Below, piece after piece: positions 2,315 through 32,311 of a DNA stretch of 32,311 nucleotides; the stretch's first letter is position 1, and each line of letters opens with the position of its first letter. The translations under genes and the position numbers were made by a program. The DNA is taken from positions 9,474 to 41,784 of the forward strand of contig CAYTHY010000001.1 of NCBI GenBank assembly GCA_964437715.1, written 5' to 3'. This DNA is from an uncultured Candidatus Saccharibacteria bacterium (GTDB lineage: Bacteria; Patescibacteriota; Minisyncoccia; Phycocordibacterales; UBA9973). The notes beneath the pieces were generated by a model, which had not been told where the DNA came from, made no database searches, and saw only the letters and a program-made list of their open reading frames with translations.

Positions 2315-3508
2315 ATGGGATTTTTATTTGAAGGAAAAAAGAATAAGGAAACTGTCGCTATTTTTGATATTGGTTCTGGTAGTGTTGGAGGAGCTGTTAT
2401 TAACATTCCCAATGATACTAAAGAAACACCATGTATTATAGATTCTGTCCGTACTGAAATAAACTATAATGAAAATAAAATTGACTCAAGCTTATTCACA
2501 AGGAGTATGCTTAGAGCTCTTAGCTTAACAATTAATAAACTTTTTAAAATTAATTCTACTCTTCCAGATAGAATAGTTTGTGTAGTTACTTCACCTTGGT
2601 ATTCATCAGAAACTAAAATTGTAAAAATAAAAAAAGAGAGTTCTTTTATTTTTACTAAGAAAATAGCAGAAGATTTAATTAAAAAAGAAATAAAAAAGAC
2701 TATGATAACTCATAGTAAAAAAAATAATACCATTTACAATAAACTTGAAATTATAGAACATTTTATTATGAAAGTGTCTCTCAATGGATATCAAGTAGAA
2801 TCTCCATTAGGTTCAAAAACGAAATCAGTTGAAATTAGTATGATTACGTCTTTTTCTCAGAAATTTTTCCTAGATAAAATACGTAAAGTCATTTTAAAAA
2901 CATACCATGAAATACCAATCTCTTTTTCTTCTTTTATCTCTGATTATTATTTCTCTATTCGTAATAAATATATTAGTCCTGATTCCTATCTATTACTTAA
3001 TATTAGAGGAGAAATTACTGAAGTTGGAATTGTCTCTAAGGGAACTCTAAAAGATACTTTATCTTTTCCTTTTGGTAAAAAAACATTTTTAAAATATATT
3101 AGCAGCAAGTTAGAAATAGAATTGCGAGACGCTAAAGAACTCTTTAATTTATATAGTTCGGGTTATTTATCAAAAGAAAAAGAAGAAGAAGTAGCTCCTC
3201 TTTTTAAATCAGCAGAATCTTCCTGGAGTGAATCTTTTCGAGAATGTATTAAAAATCTTCCTTACACTTTAGCTCTTCCAGATACAATATTTTTAATTGC
3301 TAACTTCGATATAATAGATTATTTTTCTAGTGTTATTAATAATGAAAAGTTTATTCAAGCGATGACTATTAAACATAAATGTAAAGTTATTCCAATAAGA
3401 GGGTCTGAATTTTTAAATATTTGTAAATATAACGAAAAGATAATTCACGACCCATTTTTAATGATTGAATCGGTCTCAATAATCAAAAAAAATAAACAAT
3501 ATGAATAG
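2315..3508 (+). CDS. divergent actin-fold (ASKHA; FtsA/PilM-like) protein
   Basis: Phosphate-1-like motif VAIFDIGSGSVGGAV near the N-terminus. A degenerate second motif LLLNIRGEITEVGIV is followed by FPFGKKTF. No closer family is recognisable by eye. Confidence 0.45.
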   Translation: MGFLFEGKKNKETVAIFDIGSGSVGGAVINIPNDTKETPCIIDSVRTEINYNENKIDSSLFTRSMLRALSLTINKLFKINSTLPDRIVCVVTSPWYSSETKIVKIKKESSFIFTKKIAEDLIKKEIKKTMITHSKKNNTIYNKLEIIEHFIMKVSLNGYQVESPLGSKTKSVEISMITSFSQKFFLDKIRKVILKTYHEIPISFSSFISDYYFSIRNKYISPDSYLLLNIRGEITEVGIVSKGTLKDTLSFPFGKKTFLKYISSKLEIELRDAKELFNLYSSGYLSKEKEEEVAPLFKSAESSWSESFRECIKNLPYTLALPDTIFLIANFDIIDYFSSVINNEKFIQAMTIKHKCKVIPIRGSEFLNICKYNEKIIHDPFLMIESVSIIKKNKQYE

Positions 3509-4793
3509 AAAAATAATTGAAGATATAAAAGTTAAGAAAAGAATTAAACTCGATTATCAACATTCTGATAGTATTGTTGTTAAAAGAGTAACCAAGAGAA
3601 AAAAAACTACAACTAGAAAAATATCAAGAAATCCTAAATTAATAAATAAGAAAAAAAATTTTAGTATTTATATTCTTATTTTGTTTTTTTTATCTATTCT
3701 AATTGGAGTAGGTTTCTGGGGTTCTATCTTTTTTAGAAATACCAATATTAATATAGTCAAAAAACAGCAATCTTTTTTCTTGAATAAAAAGTTATTTAAA
3801 GCTTCTAAAAATTTAAAAGCTGAAATTCCTTTTGAGGTGATGATCGTAGCTGGTAATAAGTCAGAGAAGATATCTCTTTCAGAGTCAAAAAAAATTTCAC
3901 AGAAAGCTAGGGGAAAAATTATTATTTACAATAAAAACAGCAAGAAAAAAGAATTCTTACCGGCTGATACTTATTTATCTGATGAAAATGGTAAAGTTTA
4001 TTTAACGGATGAATCTGTTCACATACCTGGTTTTACTTTAATTAAAAATAAAATTATTCCAGGTAAAATAACTGTTAATATTACTTCATTTTTACCTGGT
4101 AAGGTTTACAATGGAGATCCTACTGATTTTTATATTAATGCTTTCAGGGGGACGAGTAAGTATAAAAAAATTTATGGTAAAGCAAAGACTGCTCTTGTTG
4201 GAGGTGCTCAAGGTTTATATTATTCATTAAGTAAAAACGATGAGGGAAAATTAAATAACAATAGTATTTTAAAAGATCAACTTACCAAAAAAGCAAGTTT
4301 ACTTATTCCTAAAGATTATATTTTTTATCCACAAGCTTCAAATTTTTCATATAAGATAGATAATAAAAATATTTTATCAATTACGCCGACTGCTGATGTT
4401 GCAGTTTCAGGAACCCTTTCTGTCGTTTTGTTAAGAAAATCAGAATTAAATAATGTTATTTTAAAAACCTTATTAGCAAAAACTCCAGTTAAAGAATTAA
4501 AAACTATTCAGATAACAGGACTGAATAAATTATCATTTGAATTTAGTGATAAAAACCAAGAAATTAATAAAGATTTAAAATTATTATCTTTTACTTTAAG
4601 TGGTAAATTAAATTTGACTTGGAATCCAGATTTAATTCAATTGAAGAAAAATTTATTAGGAATTTCCAAAAAAGAACTCCCTATAATTTTTAAAGACTAT
4701 GTTGGTATAAAAGATGCTAGTGTAAAAATATTTCCTCCATGGCAATTAACATTACCATTAGATCCTTCAAAAATAAAAATTAATGTTTTATAA
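3501..4793 (+). CDS. bitopic membrane protein, basic cytoplasmic N-terminus plus large extracytoplasmic domain, hypothetical
   Basis: Overlaps the upstream ORF by 8 nt. Lys/Arg-rich first 55 residues, a single TM helix (IYILILFFLSILIGVGFWGSIFF), then about 350 aa of beta-rich-looking sequence. Confidence 0.6.
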   Translation: MNRKIIEDIKVKKRIKLDYQHSDSIVVKRVTKRKKTTTRKISRNPKLINKKKNFSIYILILFFLSILIGVGFWGSIFFRNTNINIVKKQQSFFLNKKLFKASKNLKAEIPFEVMIVAGNKSEKISLSESKKISQKARGKIIIYNKNSKKKEFLPADTYLSDENGKVYLTDESVHIPGFTLIKNKIIPGKITVNITSFLPGKVYNGDPTDFYINAFRGTSKYKKIYGKAKTALVGGAQGLYYSLSKNDEGKLNNNSILKDQLTKKASLLIPKDYIFYPQASNFSYKIDNKNILSITPTADVAVSGTLSVVLLRKSELNNVILKTLLAKTPVKELKTIQITGLNKLSFEFSDKNQEINKDLKLLSFTLSGKLNLTWNPDLIQLKKNLLGISKKELPIIFKDYVGIKDASVKIFPPWQLTLPLDPSKIKINVL

Positions 4794-9738: not shown

Positions 9739-10311
9739 TTAAAGTTTTATTCCACAGATAGAAAAAAATTCTTTTTCAGTTTTTTCATCTATTTTATCTG
9801 TCACTAAAATCATCATTTCGGTAGATAAATTTAAATCTTTTTTTATATTCATAAATAAATGTTCAAAGGGGTACATTGAAATCCAAACAGAATTTTTAGC
9901 ACAAAAAAATCCAGCTTTTTTTAATAAATACCGCAAAGCTTCTCTTTCACTTTTTCTTTCTTCGGGAAGATCAAGTAAAATTACTCGCCAAAAACCATCC
10001 CATTTAGTTGAGACTAAGCTTAAATCAGATTCTAAAATTATGTTATTAAGTTTTTGTTTACCGTTTTCAGTTAAACGAAAATACCGGCTACGCTCAGAAT
10101 TAAGAGATTCAATAAGTCCACCACTAAGAAGATTATTAACAGAACGGGTAATTGCGTAATTTAATTTTTGCTTATCAACCGTATTAGCTCGATTTTTATC
10201 CTTATAATAAGTAGTATCTTTAATATCTTCTTTGATAGATTTCATTGAAATAGCCTTTTTTTGAGATATAGTTTTTAAAATAGCCTTTTGAATTGATGGT
10301 TTTTTTGTCAT
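9739..10311 (-). CDS. PaaX-like transcriptional regulator (N-terminal winged helix plus PaaX_C / Cas2-like C-terminal domain)
   Basis: The N-terminal half looks like a wHTH (ILKTISQKKAISMKSIKEDI ... LLSGGLIESLNSERSRYFRLTENGKQKL). The C-terminal half starts with the WDGxW..(I/L)..D.PE..R..R motif (WDGFWRVILLDLPEERKSEREALRYLLKKAGF) typical of PaaX C-domains. Confidence 0.65.
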   Translation of the reverse strand: MTKKPSIQKAILKTISQKKAISMKSIKEDIKDTTYYKDKNRANTVDKQKLNYAITRSVNNLLSGGLIESLNSERSRYFRLTENGKQKLNNIILESDLSLVSTKWDGFWRVILLDLPEERKSEREALRYLLKKAGFFCAKNSVWISMYPFEHLFMNIKKDLNLSTEMMILVTDKIDEKTEKEFFSICGIKL

Positions 10312-28454: not shown

Positions 28455-28796
28455 ATGAGTGATCATAAATACCCATCAAGATTACATATTCATTTAGGCG
28501 GATTAATAATAATTATTATTATTGTTTTAGTCTTGTTTAAAGTAGATATTAGGTCAACAATAAATTCTCCACGTTTTCAAAATAATGTTAATTATATTGA
28601 ACAACAAGGAGAAAATATTTGGAACAAATATTTGAAAAAACCATTAACAAATGGATGGAATGGTCTTTTTAATAATTTACTCAATAAGGGAATTGAACAA
28701 ATAAAAAAGAGTAAATTTAATTTATCTGATATCAATAAAATTAACCCAGGTAATATTACTGGCTCCTATAAAAATTCTATAAATACTAATAAATAA
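28455..28796 (+). CDS. hypothetical membrane-anchored protein (113 aa)
   Basis: ORF with one N-terminal TM helix (LGGLIIIIIIVLVLF) and an Asn/Lys-rich tail. No recognisable family. Confidence 0.45.
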   Translation: MSDHKYPSRLHIHLGGLIIIIIIVLVLFKVDIRSTINSPRFQNNVNYIEQQGENIWNKYLKKPLTNGWNGLFNNLLNKGIEQIKKSKFNLSDINKINPGNITGSYKNSINTNK

Positions 28797-28801
28797 TATT
28801 C

Positions 28802-30082
28802 TTACAATAAATTATTATTTATTGTCTTTTCTATAAAAATTTTAGGAGACCCATAATAAAGTTTATTAAATGTCTCTATATTTTTTTTCATATTTAACAG
28901 AGATTTTGATTCTTTGGGAGGAATACTTATACCAGAAAAAGCATGACTAGTTTTACCGTCAATCATTAATTTTATATAAAAATTAAATCTAGGTAAATTA
29001 ATAAAATCTTCTACTTTCATTGGTAAAAATTCTCGTGACAATATTTCTGCATCTTCTGCTCCAACTTCAAATGAAATAATTGTTCCAACATTACCTAAAA
29101 CTGCATCTTTTATATTTTCTGGTAATTGTGCTAAATATTGGTTAGTAATATGCACACCTAATCCATATTTTCGTGACTCACTCAACATACTAATAAAGGT
29201 ATCAGTTGTAAAATTTTGGAACTCATCTACATATAGATAGAAAGGATCACGTTCAGAAGATTCTTTATTAGCTCTTTTTAATATTCCTGCTTGTAATTTA
29301 GATAATATTATTAACCCCAACATATGAGCATTTATTTCTCCAATTTTACCTTTTGATAAATTAACTAACAAAATTTTTTTATTATCCATTAAATTTTCAA
29401 AGTCAAAACTACTTTGGTGTTGTCCTATTATATTACGCATTAGAGTATTATTCATAAATTGCCCAAATTTAGACATAAAGTAATTAAGCATTTCACTTTT
29501 ATGAAAATCTGAAGTTTTAGACATTTGTTTAGTCCAAAATTCTATCACTTGTGGATCAGTAAGATGTTTTCTTTTTTCCATTTCAAAATTATGATCAATA
29601 AACAATTTTGGAATTTCTATAAGACTCCCTCCTTCTGGTCCAGCCATAACAGTAAGAGCGGCATTTCTTAACCAATGTTCAAATTGTGGACCAATAATAC
29701 CTGTCTTTTGAGGATCAAATAACTTATAAAATATTTGGATACATTCATTGACTAAAAAGTCTTTTTCAAGAGGGGAATGAGCTTCAAGTATATTAAGTCC
29801 AAATGGAAAATTTACATCACTTGGATCAAAAAGAATTACATCTTTAAATCTGTTTTCAGGAATATTTTTAAGTAACCAATCTATAGATTCTCCATGCGGA
29901 TCAATAAAACAAACACCTTTCCCATTTTCTATATCTTGTAAACACATATTTTGAAAAATAGTTGATTTACCTACTCCAGTTTTGCCAACCATATACATAT
30001 GACGCAATCTATCGTTTTCAGAATACTTAATGACAGTTGTTTTTCCGTGATATTTATTTATTCCTATAGTTATATTATTCAT
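28802..30082 (-). CDS. soluble FtsK/HerA-superfamily P-loop ATPase, VirD4/TraD (TrwB) coupling-protein-like
   Basis: Walker A MVGKTGVGKST, FIDPHGES, Walker B FYLYVDEFQNF, and SESRKYGLGVHITNQYLAQL (the RKYG..Q signature shared by HerA/TraD-type ATPases). No TM segment. Confidence 0.7.
   Translation of the reverse strand: MNNITIGINKYHGKTTVIKYSENDRLRHMYMVGKTGVGKSTIFQNMCLQDIENGKGVCFIDPHGESIDWLLKNIPENRFKDVILFDPSDVNFPFGLNILEAHSPLEKDFLVNECIQIFYKLFDPQKTGIIGPQFEHWLRNAALTVMAGPEGGSLIEIPKLFIDHNFEMEKRKHLTDPQVIEFWTKQMSKTSDFHKSEMLNYFMSKFGQFMNNTLMRNIIGQHQSSFDFENLMDNKKILLVNLSKGKIGEINAHMLGLIILSKLQAGILKRANKESSERDPFYLYVDEFQNFTTDTFISMLSESRKYGLGVHITNQYLAQLPENIKDAVLGNVGTIISFEVGAEDAEILSREFLPMKVEDFINLPRFNFYIKLMIDGKTSHAFSGISIPPKESKSLLNMKKNIETFNKLYYGSPKIFIEKTINNNLL
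28804..28832 (+). terminator. weak AT-rich hairpin plus T-rich tract, possible terminator of the plus-strand operon embedded in the 3' end of the convergent CDS
   Basis: ACAATAAAT (28804-28812) pairs with ATTTATTGT (28817-28825) around a TATT loop, followed by CTTTTCT. The stem has only one G-C pair. Confidence 0.25.
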
Positions 30083-30086
30083 AAAA

Positions 30087-30341
30087 TTATATATTATTAA
30101 TATTCAATGATTTCTTATTAAAATATTTATTATCAATAGATGTATTTGATTCATCTTCTATCTTCTCTTGAATTTTTAATTCTCGATTAATAATTTTAAG
30201 AAGGATAGCTTTTTGTTTTGTTATTTTATTTGCAATTATATTTTTTATTTCTGAATCTATATAATTTTCTATTGATAAAAGCATTTCATTTTCTATTGAA
30301 AATATTTCATCTATATTTTTTAATTTTTCATCATTGTTCAT
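30087..30341 (-). CDS. small acidic helical protein, hypothetical (84 aa)
   Basis: ORF lying 9 nt downstream of the AAA+ gene and 4 nt upstream of the VirD4-like gene. It is Glu/Asp/Ile/Asn-rich with heptad-like periodicity. Confidence 0.5.
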   Translation of the reverse strand: MNNDEKLKNIDEIFSIENEMLLSIENYIDSEIKNIIANKITKQKAILLKIINRELKIQEKIEDESNTSIDNKYFNKKSLNINNI

Positions 30342-30350
30342 AAAATTATA

Positions 30351-32012
30351 TTAATTATTCAATAAACTTTTAACTAATAACGACTCGCAAGTTTCTTCAA
30401 TAAATCTTTTAACTGGTCGCGCTCCAAACCTCGCATCAACTAGTGGTTTTATTTTTTCTTCAAGTTCTTTTGGGTTTATATCAAACGAAACATTATGTTT
30501 CGTCAATCTTTTTTCAACCTTTCTTATTTCAAGTTTAGCTATTTCTATTAGATTTGGCAATGTTAGTGGGTTAAAGATAAGAATACTATCAAAACGATTA
30601 ATAAATTCCAATCTAAATACTTTGGCTAATTCAGGAATTATTTTTTCCTGAATAAATTTTTCATCCATTATATTTTTTCCTTTATTGAATTCCTCCAGTA
30701 TTACATTTACTCCTATATTAGAAGTTGCCATTATTATGGAATTACAAGCATCCACTGTTTCGTTTTGTCCTGAAGTTAATCTTCCATCGTCTAAAACCTG
30801 AAGGAAGATATCAAAAATCTTTGAATGAGCTTTTTCAATTTCATCTAATAATATTAAACAATGTGGTTCTTCTTGTAGAGCATTAGTTAGGGCACCACCA
30901 CTTTCATAACCGCTATATCCAACAGGAGCTCCTATTAATCTTTGAACTGTGTGATCTTGCCCAAATTCAGACATATCAAATCTTATAAAACTTTCTTTTC
31001 TACCAAACATAATTTCAGAAATTAATTTAGCAGTTTCTGTTTTTCCAACTCCAGATGGCCCTAATATTAGAAATGAACCTAACGGCTTATTGGGATTTCT
31101 TATTCCTAATTTTGCTCTTTGTAAAGTTTTAATTATTTTATCAATAGCTTTATTTTGATTAATAATTTTAGAATTTAAAGTTTGATCTAAATTTTTTAAT
31201 ATTTCCATCTCATTCCCACTAAGTTGCATTTTAGGAATACCTATCTTACTAGAAACAATGTCAGAAATTATCTCATCTGTTAAAACTTTTTTATCCATAG
31301 CTTTAGTAGATACAATTCCTTCATCCATAAGGCTAATAGATGCTTGTGGTAATTTTCCCAAAGTAGGGAAGCGCTCAACATAAGAAACTATTTCCTGCAT
31401 TATTGTTGAAGGAACAATTACTTTATGATTTTTATTAAGTTGTACTAATTTACTTTCTAATATTTTAATCTGTTCAAAATTATTTTGTTTTTTTAAATTA
31501 ACTATTTCAAACATTTTTATAAAAGCTGGATACTCATGTTCTATCCAATTATATTCTTTAGGTTCCATAGTAAGAACCACTTTTATATCTGGATTTTTAA
31601 GAATATCATGATATAAACGAGCTGTATTTTGTAAAAGATTTGAGTTCCCATATACTGTTCTACCTAGATTATCTATGAATAAAACACAAGAGGGTAATTC
31701 TTTCATTATATTCTTGAATAATATTCCTTCTTCACTTCTACTATCAAAATTAAATAAATGCTCATTACCTAATTGAATAAAACTTAGATCTTTATTTTTA
31801 TCGTCTTGGACCATTTTTTTTATCCATCCATAAATAAGGCTAGTTTTTCCGGAACCGTTGGCTCCTACTAAAATAATATTATTATTAATACTTCTATTAA
31901 TAATTCTAGTTAGTCTATTAACTTCTTCTTTTCTTCCAATAATTATTGGAAATTTATTTAAAGCAATTTCTTCTCTTAAATCATTATATTCAGTTTTTCT
32001 AAAATTTTTCAT
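30351..32012 (-). CDS. Clp/Hsp100-family double-ring AAA+ ATPase lacking the N-domain and M-domain, with a degenerate D1
   Basis: D1 carries IIGRKEEVNRLTRIINR, Walker A GANGSGKT, Walker B LFIDN (Glu replaced by Asn) and LPQASISLMDEG. D2 is canonical: GPSGVGKT, GAPVGYSGY, LILLDEIEKAH, LQVLDDGRLT, ATSNIG, EFINRFD and FGARPVKR. Confidence 0.85.
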   Translation of the reverse strand: MKNFRKTEYNDLREEIALNKFPIIIGRKEEVNRLTRIINRSINNNIILVGANGSGKTSLIYGWIKKMVQDDKNKDLSFIQLGNEHLFNFDSRSEEGILFKNIMKELPSCVLFIDNLGRTVYGNSNLLQNTARLYHDILKNPDIKVVLTMEPKEYNWIEHEYPAFIKMFEIVNLKKQNNFEQIKILESKLVQLNKNHKVIVPSTIMQEIVSYVERFPTLGKLPQASISLMDEGIVSTKAMDKKVLTDEIISDIVSSKIGIPKMQLSGNEMEILKNLDQTLNSKIINQNKAIDKIIKTLQRAKLGIRNPNKPLGSFLILGPSGVGKTETAKLISEIMFGRKESFIRFDMSEFGQDHTVQRLIGAPVGYSGYESGGALTNALQEEPHCLILLDEIEKAHSKIFDIFLQVLDDGRLTSGQNETVDACNSIIMATSNIGVNVILEEFNKGKNIMDEKFIQEKIIPELAKVFRLEFINRFDSILIFNPLTLPNLIEIAKLEIRKVEKRLTKHNVSFDINPKELEEKIKPLVDARFGARPVKRFIEETCESLLVKSLLNN

Positions 32013-32020
32013 TTATTTTT

Positions 32021-32311
32021 TTAAGCTGCTATTTTTAATGTTATCCCATTTAAGTTAGTCGGCTTATTTTTACTGGAAATTATTTTTGTTGGATTATTCT
32101 CAAATTCTTCTTGATTTGAAATTGGAAAGTTTTTTCTACTCATTAATTCAACTACTTCTGGTTTTATTACATTTGAAGGAACTCTAAGTATTTGAGATAA
32201 AATATCATGACTTTTTACCCCCACATTTTCTTTTCTCTCTTCTACATTCTCCGATATTTCTTCTTTGGATTGAATTATAACTGGTTCTATCGTTTGCTCT
32301 ACTGTTTTATT
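32021..32311 (-). CDS. hypothetical protein, 3' part only (ORF stays open to the window edge)
   Basis: The reading frame of the 32021..32224 track ORF has no stop codon up to 32311 (checked codon by codon). It ends 8 nt upstream of the AAA+ gene. The GTG at 32224 is probably internal. Confidence 0.5.
   Translation of the reverse strand, partial: NKTVEQTIEPVIIQSKEEISENVEERKENVGVKSHDILSQILRVPSNVIKPEVVELMSRKNFPISNQEEFENNPTKIISSKNKPTNLNGITLKIAA

Follow-up and report, generated by a model that had tools for sequence, protein, structure and literature searches.

A Clp-type AAA+ protein and a soluble VirD4-type ATPase share a conserved Patescibacteria operon with an acidic protein carrying an ssrA-like tail

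We found that a four-gene operon of an uncultured Candidatus Saccharibacteria bacterium combines a shortened Clp-type AAA+ protein with a soluble ATPase of the VirD4/TrwB fold, a small helical protein and a strongly acidic protein whose C-terminus resembles the ssrA tag. The operon occupies the minus strand of positions 28802-32311 at the end of a 32,311-nt stretch of contig CAYTHY010000001.1 (assembly GCA_964437715.1), referred to here as the window. In the direction of transcription we number its genes 1 (acidic protein, partial), 2 (AAA+ protein), 3 (small protein) and 4 (coupling-type ATPase). The four-gene module appears to be lineage-wide and vertically inherited in Patescibacteria, and the polyanionic product of gene 1 is a likely client of the AAA+ motor. 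Our preferred, tentative reading is a two-motor machine that is encoded together with its own client.

Layout of the operon

Listing of the open reading frames (ORFs) placed three complete minus-strand genes at 30351-32012 (gene 2, 553 aa), 30087-30341 (gene 3, 84 aa) and 28802-30082 (gene 4, 426 aa). Upstream of them, a frame on the same strand is open from a stop codon at 32021 through the window edge and represents the C-terminal 96 codons of gene 1 (32021..32311), recognised by translation and by comparison with homologues. The intergenic gaps within the block are 4, 9 and 8 nt. A first-pass annotation made from the sequence alone had described four tightly spaced minus-strand genes running off the window, and the ORF listing and the gaps bear this out. 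Likewise, the 5 nt it had counted between the block and a convergent housekeeping gene are present in the sequence, the plus-strand ORF in question ending at 28796. Annotation of the remaining genes also agrees with its view that the block is the sole non-housekeeping part of the window. These genes encode aminoacyl-tRNA synthetases, ribosomal proteins and an M23 peptidase and include rpoA, grpE-dnaK-dnaJ, dnaB, recR, scpAB, mraY, ftsW and murG. As had been noted, the window holds no ClpP, VirB component, relaxase or integrase.

We call the block an operon because of its close spacing and its conserved synteny. Scans for promoters and terminators speak neither for nor against a single transcript, and in this AT-rich DNA the window scan gave 29 promoter-like sites compared with 28.7 in shuffled sequences.

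The four genes are conserved as a unit

Conservation of the module was analyzed in a genome scan using one genome per GTDB species, which gave 376 relatives of the ATPase, all of them in records labelled Patescibacteria or similar. Eighty of the 376 loci were kept. The 42 loci in which the ATPase shares at least 62% identity with that of the window are referred to as group 1 and the other 38 as group 2. At all 42 group-1 loci the AAA+ gene lies directly upstream of the ATPase gene with a small ORF between them, and an acidic ORF precedes the AAA+ gene wherever this flank exists. The identities of the ATPase and of the AAA+ protein to their window counterparts co-vary (Spearman 0.90, n = 41), and the longest-contig sizes of AAA+ matches and ATPase matches agree in many pairs. 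The proposal that the AAA+ and P-loop genes form a unit is thus supported by their adjacency in every group-1 locus, and the comparison of gene neighbourhoods extends it to the small gene. Two metagenome contexts contain the full operon, with a large protein lacking a Pfam match (843 or 648 aa), an AAA+ protein of 553-558 aa, a small protein of 105-106 aa and then the ATPase.

The flanks of the module are variable. None of the flanking families reached more than 8 of ~40 loci; where a family did recur, it was a housekeeping one. Neither a type IV secretion system (T4SS) family, virB4 included, nor a relaxase family recurred within 7 kb in these ~40 loci, and the window has none. The first-pass annotation had considered that a standard conjugative or T4SS locus might lie further upstream; none is found upstream in the relatives, in which the operon begins with gene 1.

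Relatives of the coupling ATPase number in the thousands. Among the top 120, identity never falls below 69%, even though they span Kaiser-, Wolfe-, Colwell-, Nomura- and other 'candidate phylum' lineages. The module itself was seen in Nomura-, Kaiser-, Wolfe-, Doudna- and Magasanikbacteria-type lineages, and the nearest lineage to the window is Candidatus Nomurabacteria. When relatives were clustered at 50%, 5,109 ATPase representatives were obtained at E <= 1e-30. Nearly all of them are 700-2000 aa long, with an ATPase domain that begins mostly around residue 370-430 or ~1000-1100, and the stand-alone form makes up only a handful of clusters. This cluster pattern, together with the pattern of the loci, indicates that the soluble ATPase represents one slow-evolving clade, the one with the AAA+ neighbour.

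The exact AAA+ protein is present in five assemblies, namely that of the window, three Logan runs and NCBI GCA_006243245.1. All five are independent and all stop inside gene 1, with ends ~70 nt apart at most (32021-32311 in the window, positions 1-345 in loci L001-L004). Extension of the contig past 32311, as suggested by the first-pass annotation, therefore ended within gene 1 in every assembly, and it was the homologues that revealed the full operon. The acidic region of gene 1 seems both to break assemblies and to turn over fast by insertions and deletions.

At locus L005 (383-4405), from one close relative, the operon lies just downstream of genes for an N6/N4 methyltransferase, a serine recombinase and a protein with an SduA_C domain (a Shedu-like defence gene). 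From these neighbours we conclude that the module can border a mobile or defence island without being part of it.

Gene 1 encodes a polyanion with a conserved C-terminus

The 84-aa protein had been described as acidic, which was not confirmed because with 15 Asp and Glu versus 13 Lys and Arg it is nearly neutral; the strongly acidic product of the block is that of the partial upstream gene 1. Full-length relatives of gene 1, including those at loci L005, L006 and L007, encode proteins of 400-910 aa, and close relatives alone span 491-910 aa. Their Asp and Glu fraction is 0.17-0.28, compared with a mean of 0.120 and a maximum of 0.184 in background ORFs of at least 400 aa, and their net charge lies mostly between -35 and -140. 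Only two parts of the protein are conserved, an N-terminal globular domain of ~110 aa and the extreme C-terminus. The N-terminal domain is followed by a fast-evolving acidic low-complexity region, and the final ~40 residues are neutral to basic. There are no tandem repeats of note, and the acidic region is of low-complexity composition, not a repeat array. Pfam scans of each N-terminal domain gave no family common to more than one member, and a profile built from a 26-sequence alignment of this domain found nothing at E <= 1e-3 among 5.8 G proteins.

Clp motors classically read a tail that ends in Ala-Ala at the free C-terminus, as in the ssrA tag. The gene 1 product of the window ends in LNGITLKIAA-COOH (32024..32053, minus strand), which we regard as an ssrA-like C-terminal signal, and the consensus of 42 proteins reads L-N-G-I-T-[LM]-[KR]-[RI]-A-A-COOH. 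In register with the stop codon, 26 of the 42 gene 1 products end in AA and 34 end in A. Among background ORFs of the same loci, an AA ending was found in 4 of 612 (Fisher p = 1.7e-31). All four types of Ala codon are used at both terminal positions, and the distance between the stop codon and the ATG of the AAA+ gene ranges from 3 to 116 nt. Because synonymous codons and spacing both vary, selection acts on the end of the protein. The alternative that the terminal GCN-GCN reflects a ribosome-binding site of the AAA+ gene is ruled out by the same two observations. Transfer-messenger RNA (tmRNA) was not found in the window or in any locus examined.

Gene 2 encodes a Clp-like AAA+ protein with one degenerate ring

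The 553-aa product had been predicted to be a two-module AAA+ protein, and matches to AAA_2 (1.2e-53), ClpB_D2-small (1.3e-9) and, across residues 11-551, to the NCBIfam model of ClpA confirmed this. The score against the NCBIfam ClpB model is far below cut-off (376 versus 1232). Motifs were judged in an alignment of 43 family members with E. coli ClpB and ClpA. The second module, D2 with its D2-small domain (residues ~246-553; 30351..31277, minus strand), was delimited by Pfam, the ClpB alignment and the motif check in these 43 members; D2 aligned to E. coli ClpB D2 with 266 bits, and its best sequence matches are ClpB, ClpC and Hsp104. It kept every catalytic and pore motif, with Walker A GPSGVGKTE, Walker B LLDEIEKAH, the pore loop GAPVGYSGYESGG, sensor-1 ATSN and sensor-2 GARPVKR. 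Judged by these motifs, D2 is probably a canonical active Hsp100-type motor ring.

The first module, D1 (residues 1 to ~245; 31278..32012, minus strand), is by the ClpB and family alignments a degenerate AAA+ ring that aligned weakly to ClpB D1 (40 bits). It retains only Walker A (GANGSGKTS). The Walker B Glu is substituted, with FIDNLG in the window and D-[N/D/S/G]-F-G family-wide, and the Arg fingers (positions of ClpB R331/R332), sensor-1 and the conserved pore-loop aromatic residue (ClpB KYR) are missing. Gene 2 has no N-terminal Clp_N domain, the alignment beginning at ClpB residue 158-166, and no coiled-coil M-domain, the ClpB insertion of ~120 residues being absent. Across the 43 family members, the region aligned to ClpA ...RKSIGLIHQ... 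shows no conserved hydrophobic-Gly-hydrophobic tripeptide, and the ClpP-docking loop (IGL/IGF/VGF) is thus absent. Since the N-domain, the M-domain and the IGL/IGF loop are all missing, the protein is best viewed as a threading motor that would be unable to feed ClpP.

Gene 4 encodes a soluble ATPase of the VirD4/TrwB fold

The 426-aa product (28802..30082, minus strand) had been noted as a P-loop ATPase. This proved correct, and Pfam, NCBIfam, an AlphaFold2 model, Foldseek and the alignment place it in the VirD4/TrwB/HerA group as a coupling-type ATPase with the fold of hexameric pumps. Scores against TrwB_AAD_bind (24.8 bits), DUF87 (24.4) and TraG-D_C (24.1) exceed the Pfam cut-offs, and the DUF87 and TrwB_AAD_bind matches cover the P-loop region. 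Weak NCBIfam matches were obtained to SXT_TraD, CD1115 VirD4-like and CedD, far below equivalog cut-offs (52.8 versus 366). Walker A (GKTGVGKST, residues 33-41) and Walker B (YLYVDEF, 282-288) are invariant in a 36-sequence alignment, in which the conserved motifs further downstream are intact as well. The AlphaFold2 model (pLDDT 80.6, pTM 0.83) has an all-alpha domain inserted into the nucleotide-binding domain at approximately residues 104-233. Foldseek against the PDB ranked TrwB (1e9s), Cagbeta (8dol) and DotL (6sz9) on top, with E of ~1e-7 and TM of 0.5-0.64, followed by HerA and VirB4. The protein has neither an N-terminal hydrophobic segment nor a transmembrane anchor and starts directly at the beta-strands of the nucleotide-binding domain. 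Judged by its sequence, the gene 4 product is a VirD4/TrwB-fold ATPase with intact catalytic motifs, in which the membrane anchor common to nearly all its relatives has been lost.

Gene 3 encodes a small protein predicted to be helical

In every group-1 locus, the AAA+ and ATPase genes are separated by a small ORF of 75-109 aa. Its representative in the window (30087..30341, minus strand) was defined by this conserved position, by a 30-sequence alignment and by AlphaFold2, which from the single sequence predicts one helix spanning residues 3-83 (pLDDT 88.5), with confidence falling over the C-terminal motif. This motif, (V/I)L/D-x-x-Y-F-x-Q/K-K-x-L, is conserved; in the alignment F74 is invariant and K39 is almost so. 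Pfam scans of each group-1 small protein gave no family common to more than one member. We consider the protein a candidate adaptor between the two ATPases.

Relatives outside the module and other genes of the window

Group 2 comprises loci from Berkelbacteria, Saccharimonadales and others, with ATPase domains 52-59% identical to the window protein. The families T4SS-DNA_transf, TrwB_AAD_bind and TraG-D_C were found in group 2, and these ATPases thus share their Pfam families with the window ATPase. They differ in architecture: the domain forms the C-terminal half of a membrane-anchored protein of ~800 aa, which is followed in tandem by a second paralogue of 900-1050 aa. Each paralogue contains an additional, uncharacterised domain of ~350 aa between the transmembrane helix and the ATPase. 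Examples of such pairs are L079 8563-14169, L063 8882-14326 and L058 8539-14172, with more at other loci. Within 10 kb of group-2 ATPases we found no AAA+ gene, and group 2 has no homologue of gene 1 or of the small protein. A P/E/Q-rich acidic ORF of ~100 aa, often starting with MVERG, precedes the pair. On its two sides the pair is bordered by an ORF that looks tgt-like on inspection of its sequence and by two membrane-protein ORFs, presumably secDF. The ~100-aa acidic ORFs and the N-terminal regions of the group-2 ATPases were tested for homology to gene 3 and to the gene 1 N-terminal domain and proved not to be homologous.

Among IMG/VR viral contigs no relative of the module was found, and the best plasmid relatives are at most 35% identical and located in unrelated contexts. 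On these grounds we rejected a mobile-element origin of the module. Outside Patescibacteria, the closest relative from the plasmid collection is encoded on the Sulfitobacter plasmid NZ_CP081110.1 (L089 7917-9104) and is likewise a soluble protein that stands alone (~395 aa, 34.6% identity). Its gene adjoins a DUF3768 gene and transposases, not a T4SS locus.

Elsewhere in the window, two overlapping plus-strand ORFs of 397 and 430 aa (2315-3508 and 3501-4793) without a Pfam match at 1e-5 sit between alanyl-tRNA synthetase and the rpsM-rpsK-rpsD-rpoA block. The product of a divergent minus-strand gene at 9739-10311, between grpE and dnaK-dnaJ, has 190 aa and a PaaX_M (Cas2-like) domain and might regulate the chaperone genes.

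A proposed two-motor machine with an encoded client

How might a Clp-type motor and a coupling ATPase act together? The Ala-Ala tail of gene 1 lies at a free C-terminus and is encoded immediately upstream of a protease-less Clp-type motor, and for this reason we read the polyanion as a client of that motor. The AAA+ hexamer would recognise the tail in the way the ssrA tag is read by ClpX and ClpA, and would thread the polyanion from its C- to its N-terminus via the D2 pore. With no protease receiver, the exit face of the AAA+ ring would work with the hexamer of the coupling ATPase, and the helical gene 3 protein might bridge or regulate the two motors. The coupling ATPase could then pass the unfolded chain to the Patescibacteria T4SS channel, which is encoded elsewhere and has no coupling protein linked to it, or could pump or pull the chain itself. 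The N-terminal domain of gene 1 would serve as cargo or handle, and the acidic region as a fast-evolving, composition-selected spacer or track. We assign a probability of roughly 45% to the reading in which the AAA+ protein engages the gene 1 tail and threads the polyanion in concert with the coupling ATPase and the helical adaptor, perhaps into the Patescibacteria T4SS.

The pump-type ATPase of the operon belongs to a family that normally takes secretion substrates via C-terminal signals; those of type IV substrates are often basic. The first-pass annotation had proposed a module for substrate unfolding and delivery. This reading gained a candidate client, the gene 1 polyanion with its conserved ...AA tail. 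Export via the Patescibacteria T4SS is plausible. A total of 5,713 VirD4-type coupling proteins were reported in 2,918 of 3,035 Patescibacteria genomes, of which 148 are near virB4, and their role was left open (PMC12102498). According to another paper, the unfoldase that drives type IV secretion with ATP 'remains unknown' (PMC6362355).

Several points weigh against our reading. The coupling ATPase has no membrane segment, which makes a route to a membrane channel difficult, and the D1 pore loop is not conserved, so that recognition of a tail on the entry side is not obvious. About a third of gene 1 products lack the AA end (VA, AS, SS and others), and the coupling ATPase is an equally possible reader of the tail. 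As group-2 ATPases have no AAA+ gene or gene 1 homologue nearby, the pairing is clade-specific. Peptide words of the window protein served as seeds for the co-occurrence sample, which is therefore biased towards relatives. Lastly, the t4cp homologue of S. epibionticum was reported to be dispensable for epibiotic growth, while other T4SS genes are essential (PMC12102498).

Alternative readings

A role in DNA handling is the first alternative. The ATPase would retain an ancestral role as a DNA translocase for uptake or transfer in nucleotide-auxotrophic cells, gene 1 a DNA-mimicking plug or regulator, and the AAA+ protein would remove or recycle the mimic by its tail. The TrwB, HerA and VirB4 folds are those of DNA pumps, the weak NCBIfam match to CedD points to an archaeal DNA-import ATPase, and the extreme negative charge of gene 1, selected for composition and variable in sequence, is what one would expect of a nucleic-acid mimic. 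Possible DNA import by the Patescibacteria T4SS has also been discussed (PMC12102498). However, no relaxase, nuclease, ComEC or DNA-binding domain is encoded in the operon or recurs in its flanks, and a conserved globular domain at the N-terminus of gene 1 would have no obvious reason. The known DNA mimics Ocr and ArdA are compact and structured, unlike the long disordered gene 1 product with its V, I, T and P amid acidic residues. We consider this reading unlikely.

Cytoplasmic proteostasis is less likely still. The AAA+ protein would be a minimal replacement for ClpB or ClpC, acting as a disaggregase or unfoldase, the acidic protein would be a solubilising holdase, and the adjacency of the AAA+ and coupling ATPase genes would be a matter of co-regulation or genome compaction, not of joint action. 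The best matches of D2 (ClpB, ClpC, Hsp104) and the very small, gene-dense genomes of these bacteria are in line with this. Yet the four-gene synteny outlasts complete turnover of the flanks across deep lineages, and clades with a membrane-anchored ATPase have no AAA+ neighbour, which ties the AAA+ protein specifically to the soluble form. Moreover, ClpB needs its M-domain for cooperation with DnaK, and gene 2 lacks this domain as well as the N-domain and the ClpP loop, while dnaK-dnaJ-grpE are located elsewhere in the window.

Anti-phage defence by a HerA-partner module, as raised by the first-pass annotation, or by one of the Dodola type (with the ClpB-like DolB) is very improbable. PADLOC gave generic matches (the ATPase to mad8 with 6.2e-14 and to HerA models, the AAA+ D2 to DolB with 4e-31 and PDC-M37B with 5.1e-33) but found no effector partner (SIR2, DUF4297, DolA) and no match of any kind for gene 1 and the small protein. 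The module appears to be vertically inherited, and an ATPase that is ~70% identical across candidate-phylum-level lineages, near-universal as a family in the phylum and co-diverging with its AAA+ partner behaves otherwise than the patchy, fast-turnover content of defence islands. In addition, no relative was found in IMG/VR, and plasmid relatives are at most 35% identical and in unrelated contexts.

Implications for Patescibacteria

Patescibacteria account for a large share of bacterial diversity and live mostly attached to other cells. Their T4SS is essential in the single genetically tractable member, and we know of no effector for it. Patescibacteria coupling proteins are unlinked 'orphans' whose role is open (PMC12102498). 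In the phylum's largest class, the operon described here links such orphan ATPases to three constant partners and offers a candidate client, which makes them biochemically testable. A bolder version of the two-motor machine, which we regard as doubtful, places the module at the Patescibacteria T4SS as its missing end for substrate engagement. The Clp-derived unfoldase would sit on or be bridged to the membrane-less ATPase, grip the Ala-Ala tail and feed the unfolded polyanion into the channel and on into the host cell. If true, a dedicated ATP-driven unfoldase would for the first time be known from a type IV secretion system, and gene 1 would encode the first identified effector of Paceibacteria-type episymbionts. 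Even without secretion, the module would represent a new kind of AAA+ machine, in which a Clp motor has a RecA-fold hexameric pump in place of ClpP and acts on a polyanion with a genetically encoded ssrA-like tail.

Comparison with known systems

Gene 4 resembles the type IV coupling proteins VirD4, TrwB, Cagbeta and DotL in its RecA-like nucleotide-binding domain with an inserted all-alpha domain and in its intact Walker A and B motifs. It differs from them in having no transmembrane anchor and no linkage to virB4, a relaxase or a T4SS, in sharing an operon with a Clp-type AAA+ gene, and in being much more conserved than the coupling proteins of mobile elements. Coupling proteins take their substrates by C-terminal signals, often via small adaptor proteins, and the structure 8dol, which is among the top structural matches of gene 4, is that of a Cagbeta-CagZ complex.

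With the class I Hsp100/Clp proteins (ClpB, ClpA, ClpC, ClpV), gene 2 shares tandem AAA+ modules and a ClpB-like D2 with a D2-small domain. Like ClpB and ClpV it has no ClpP-docking loop and would thread without degrading. At 553 aa it is shorter than the usual 750-870 aa, has neither N- nor M-domain and carries a degenerate D1. The gene 1 tail is comparable to ssrA and other C-terminal Ala-Ala degrons of ClpX and ClpA, with AA at the extreme C-terminus after hydrophobic residues and a Clp-type motor encoded beside it. In contrast to ssrA, which is added by tmRNA, it is genetically encoded, and the neighbouring motor has no ClpP-docking loop. The outcome would probably be threading or remodelling rather than degradation.

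The statement of the first-pass annotation that it knew of no described system pairing an unfolding AAA+ protein with a translocase of the FtsK/HerA superfamily was too strong. ESX/type VII secretion pairs EccA, an AAA+ protein, with EccC, an FtsK/SpoIIIE-type ATPase, and has small helical Esx substrates. Its logic is alike in that a cytosolic AAA+ protein, an ATPase of the FtsK/HerA superfamily, a helical protein of ~100 aa and substrates with C-terminal tails are all co-encoded. Homology to the module does not reach beyond the P-loop level, and the Pfam scans of the module proteins gave no FtsK_SpoIIIE or WXG100 match. EccA is a CbbX-type single-ring AAA+ protein with tetratricopeptide repeats, whereas the AAA+ protein of the module is of the Clp type; EccC is membrane-anchored with three ATPase domains, whereas the ATPase of the module is soluble; and the small ESX protein is a WXG100 hairpin, whereas gene 3 is predicted to form one helix. 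A Clp-type AAA+ protein paired with a VirD4-type coupling protein was not found in the open-access full-text literature on Patescibacteria and the candidate phyla radiation. Both motors of the operon belong to known families but fail several of their defining features, and together with an encoded client they seem to form a new combination.

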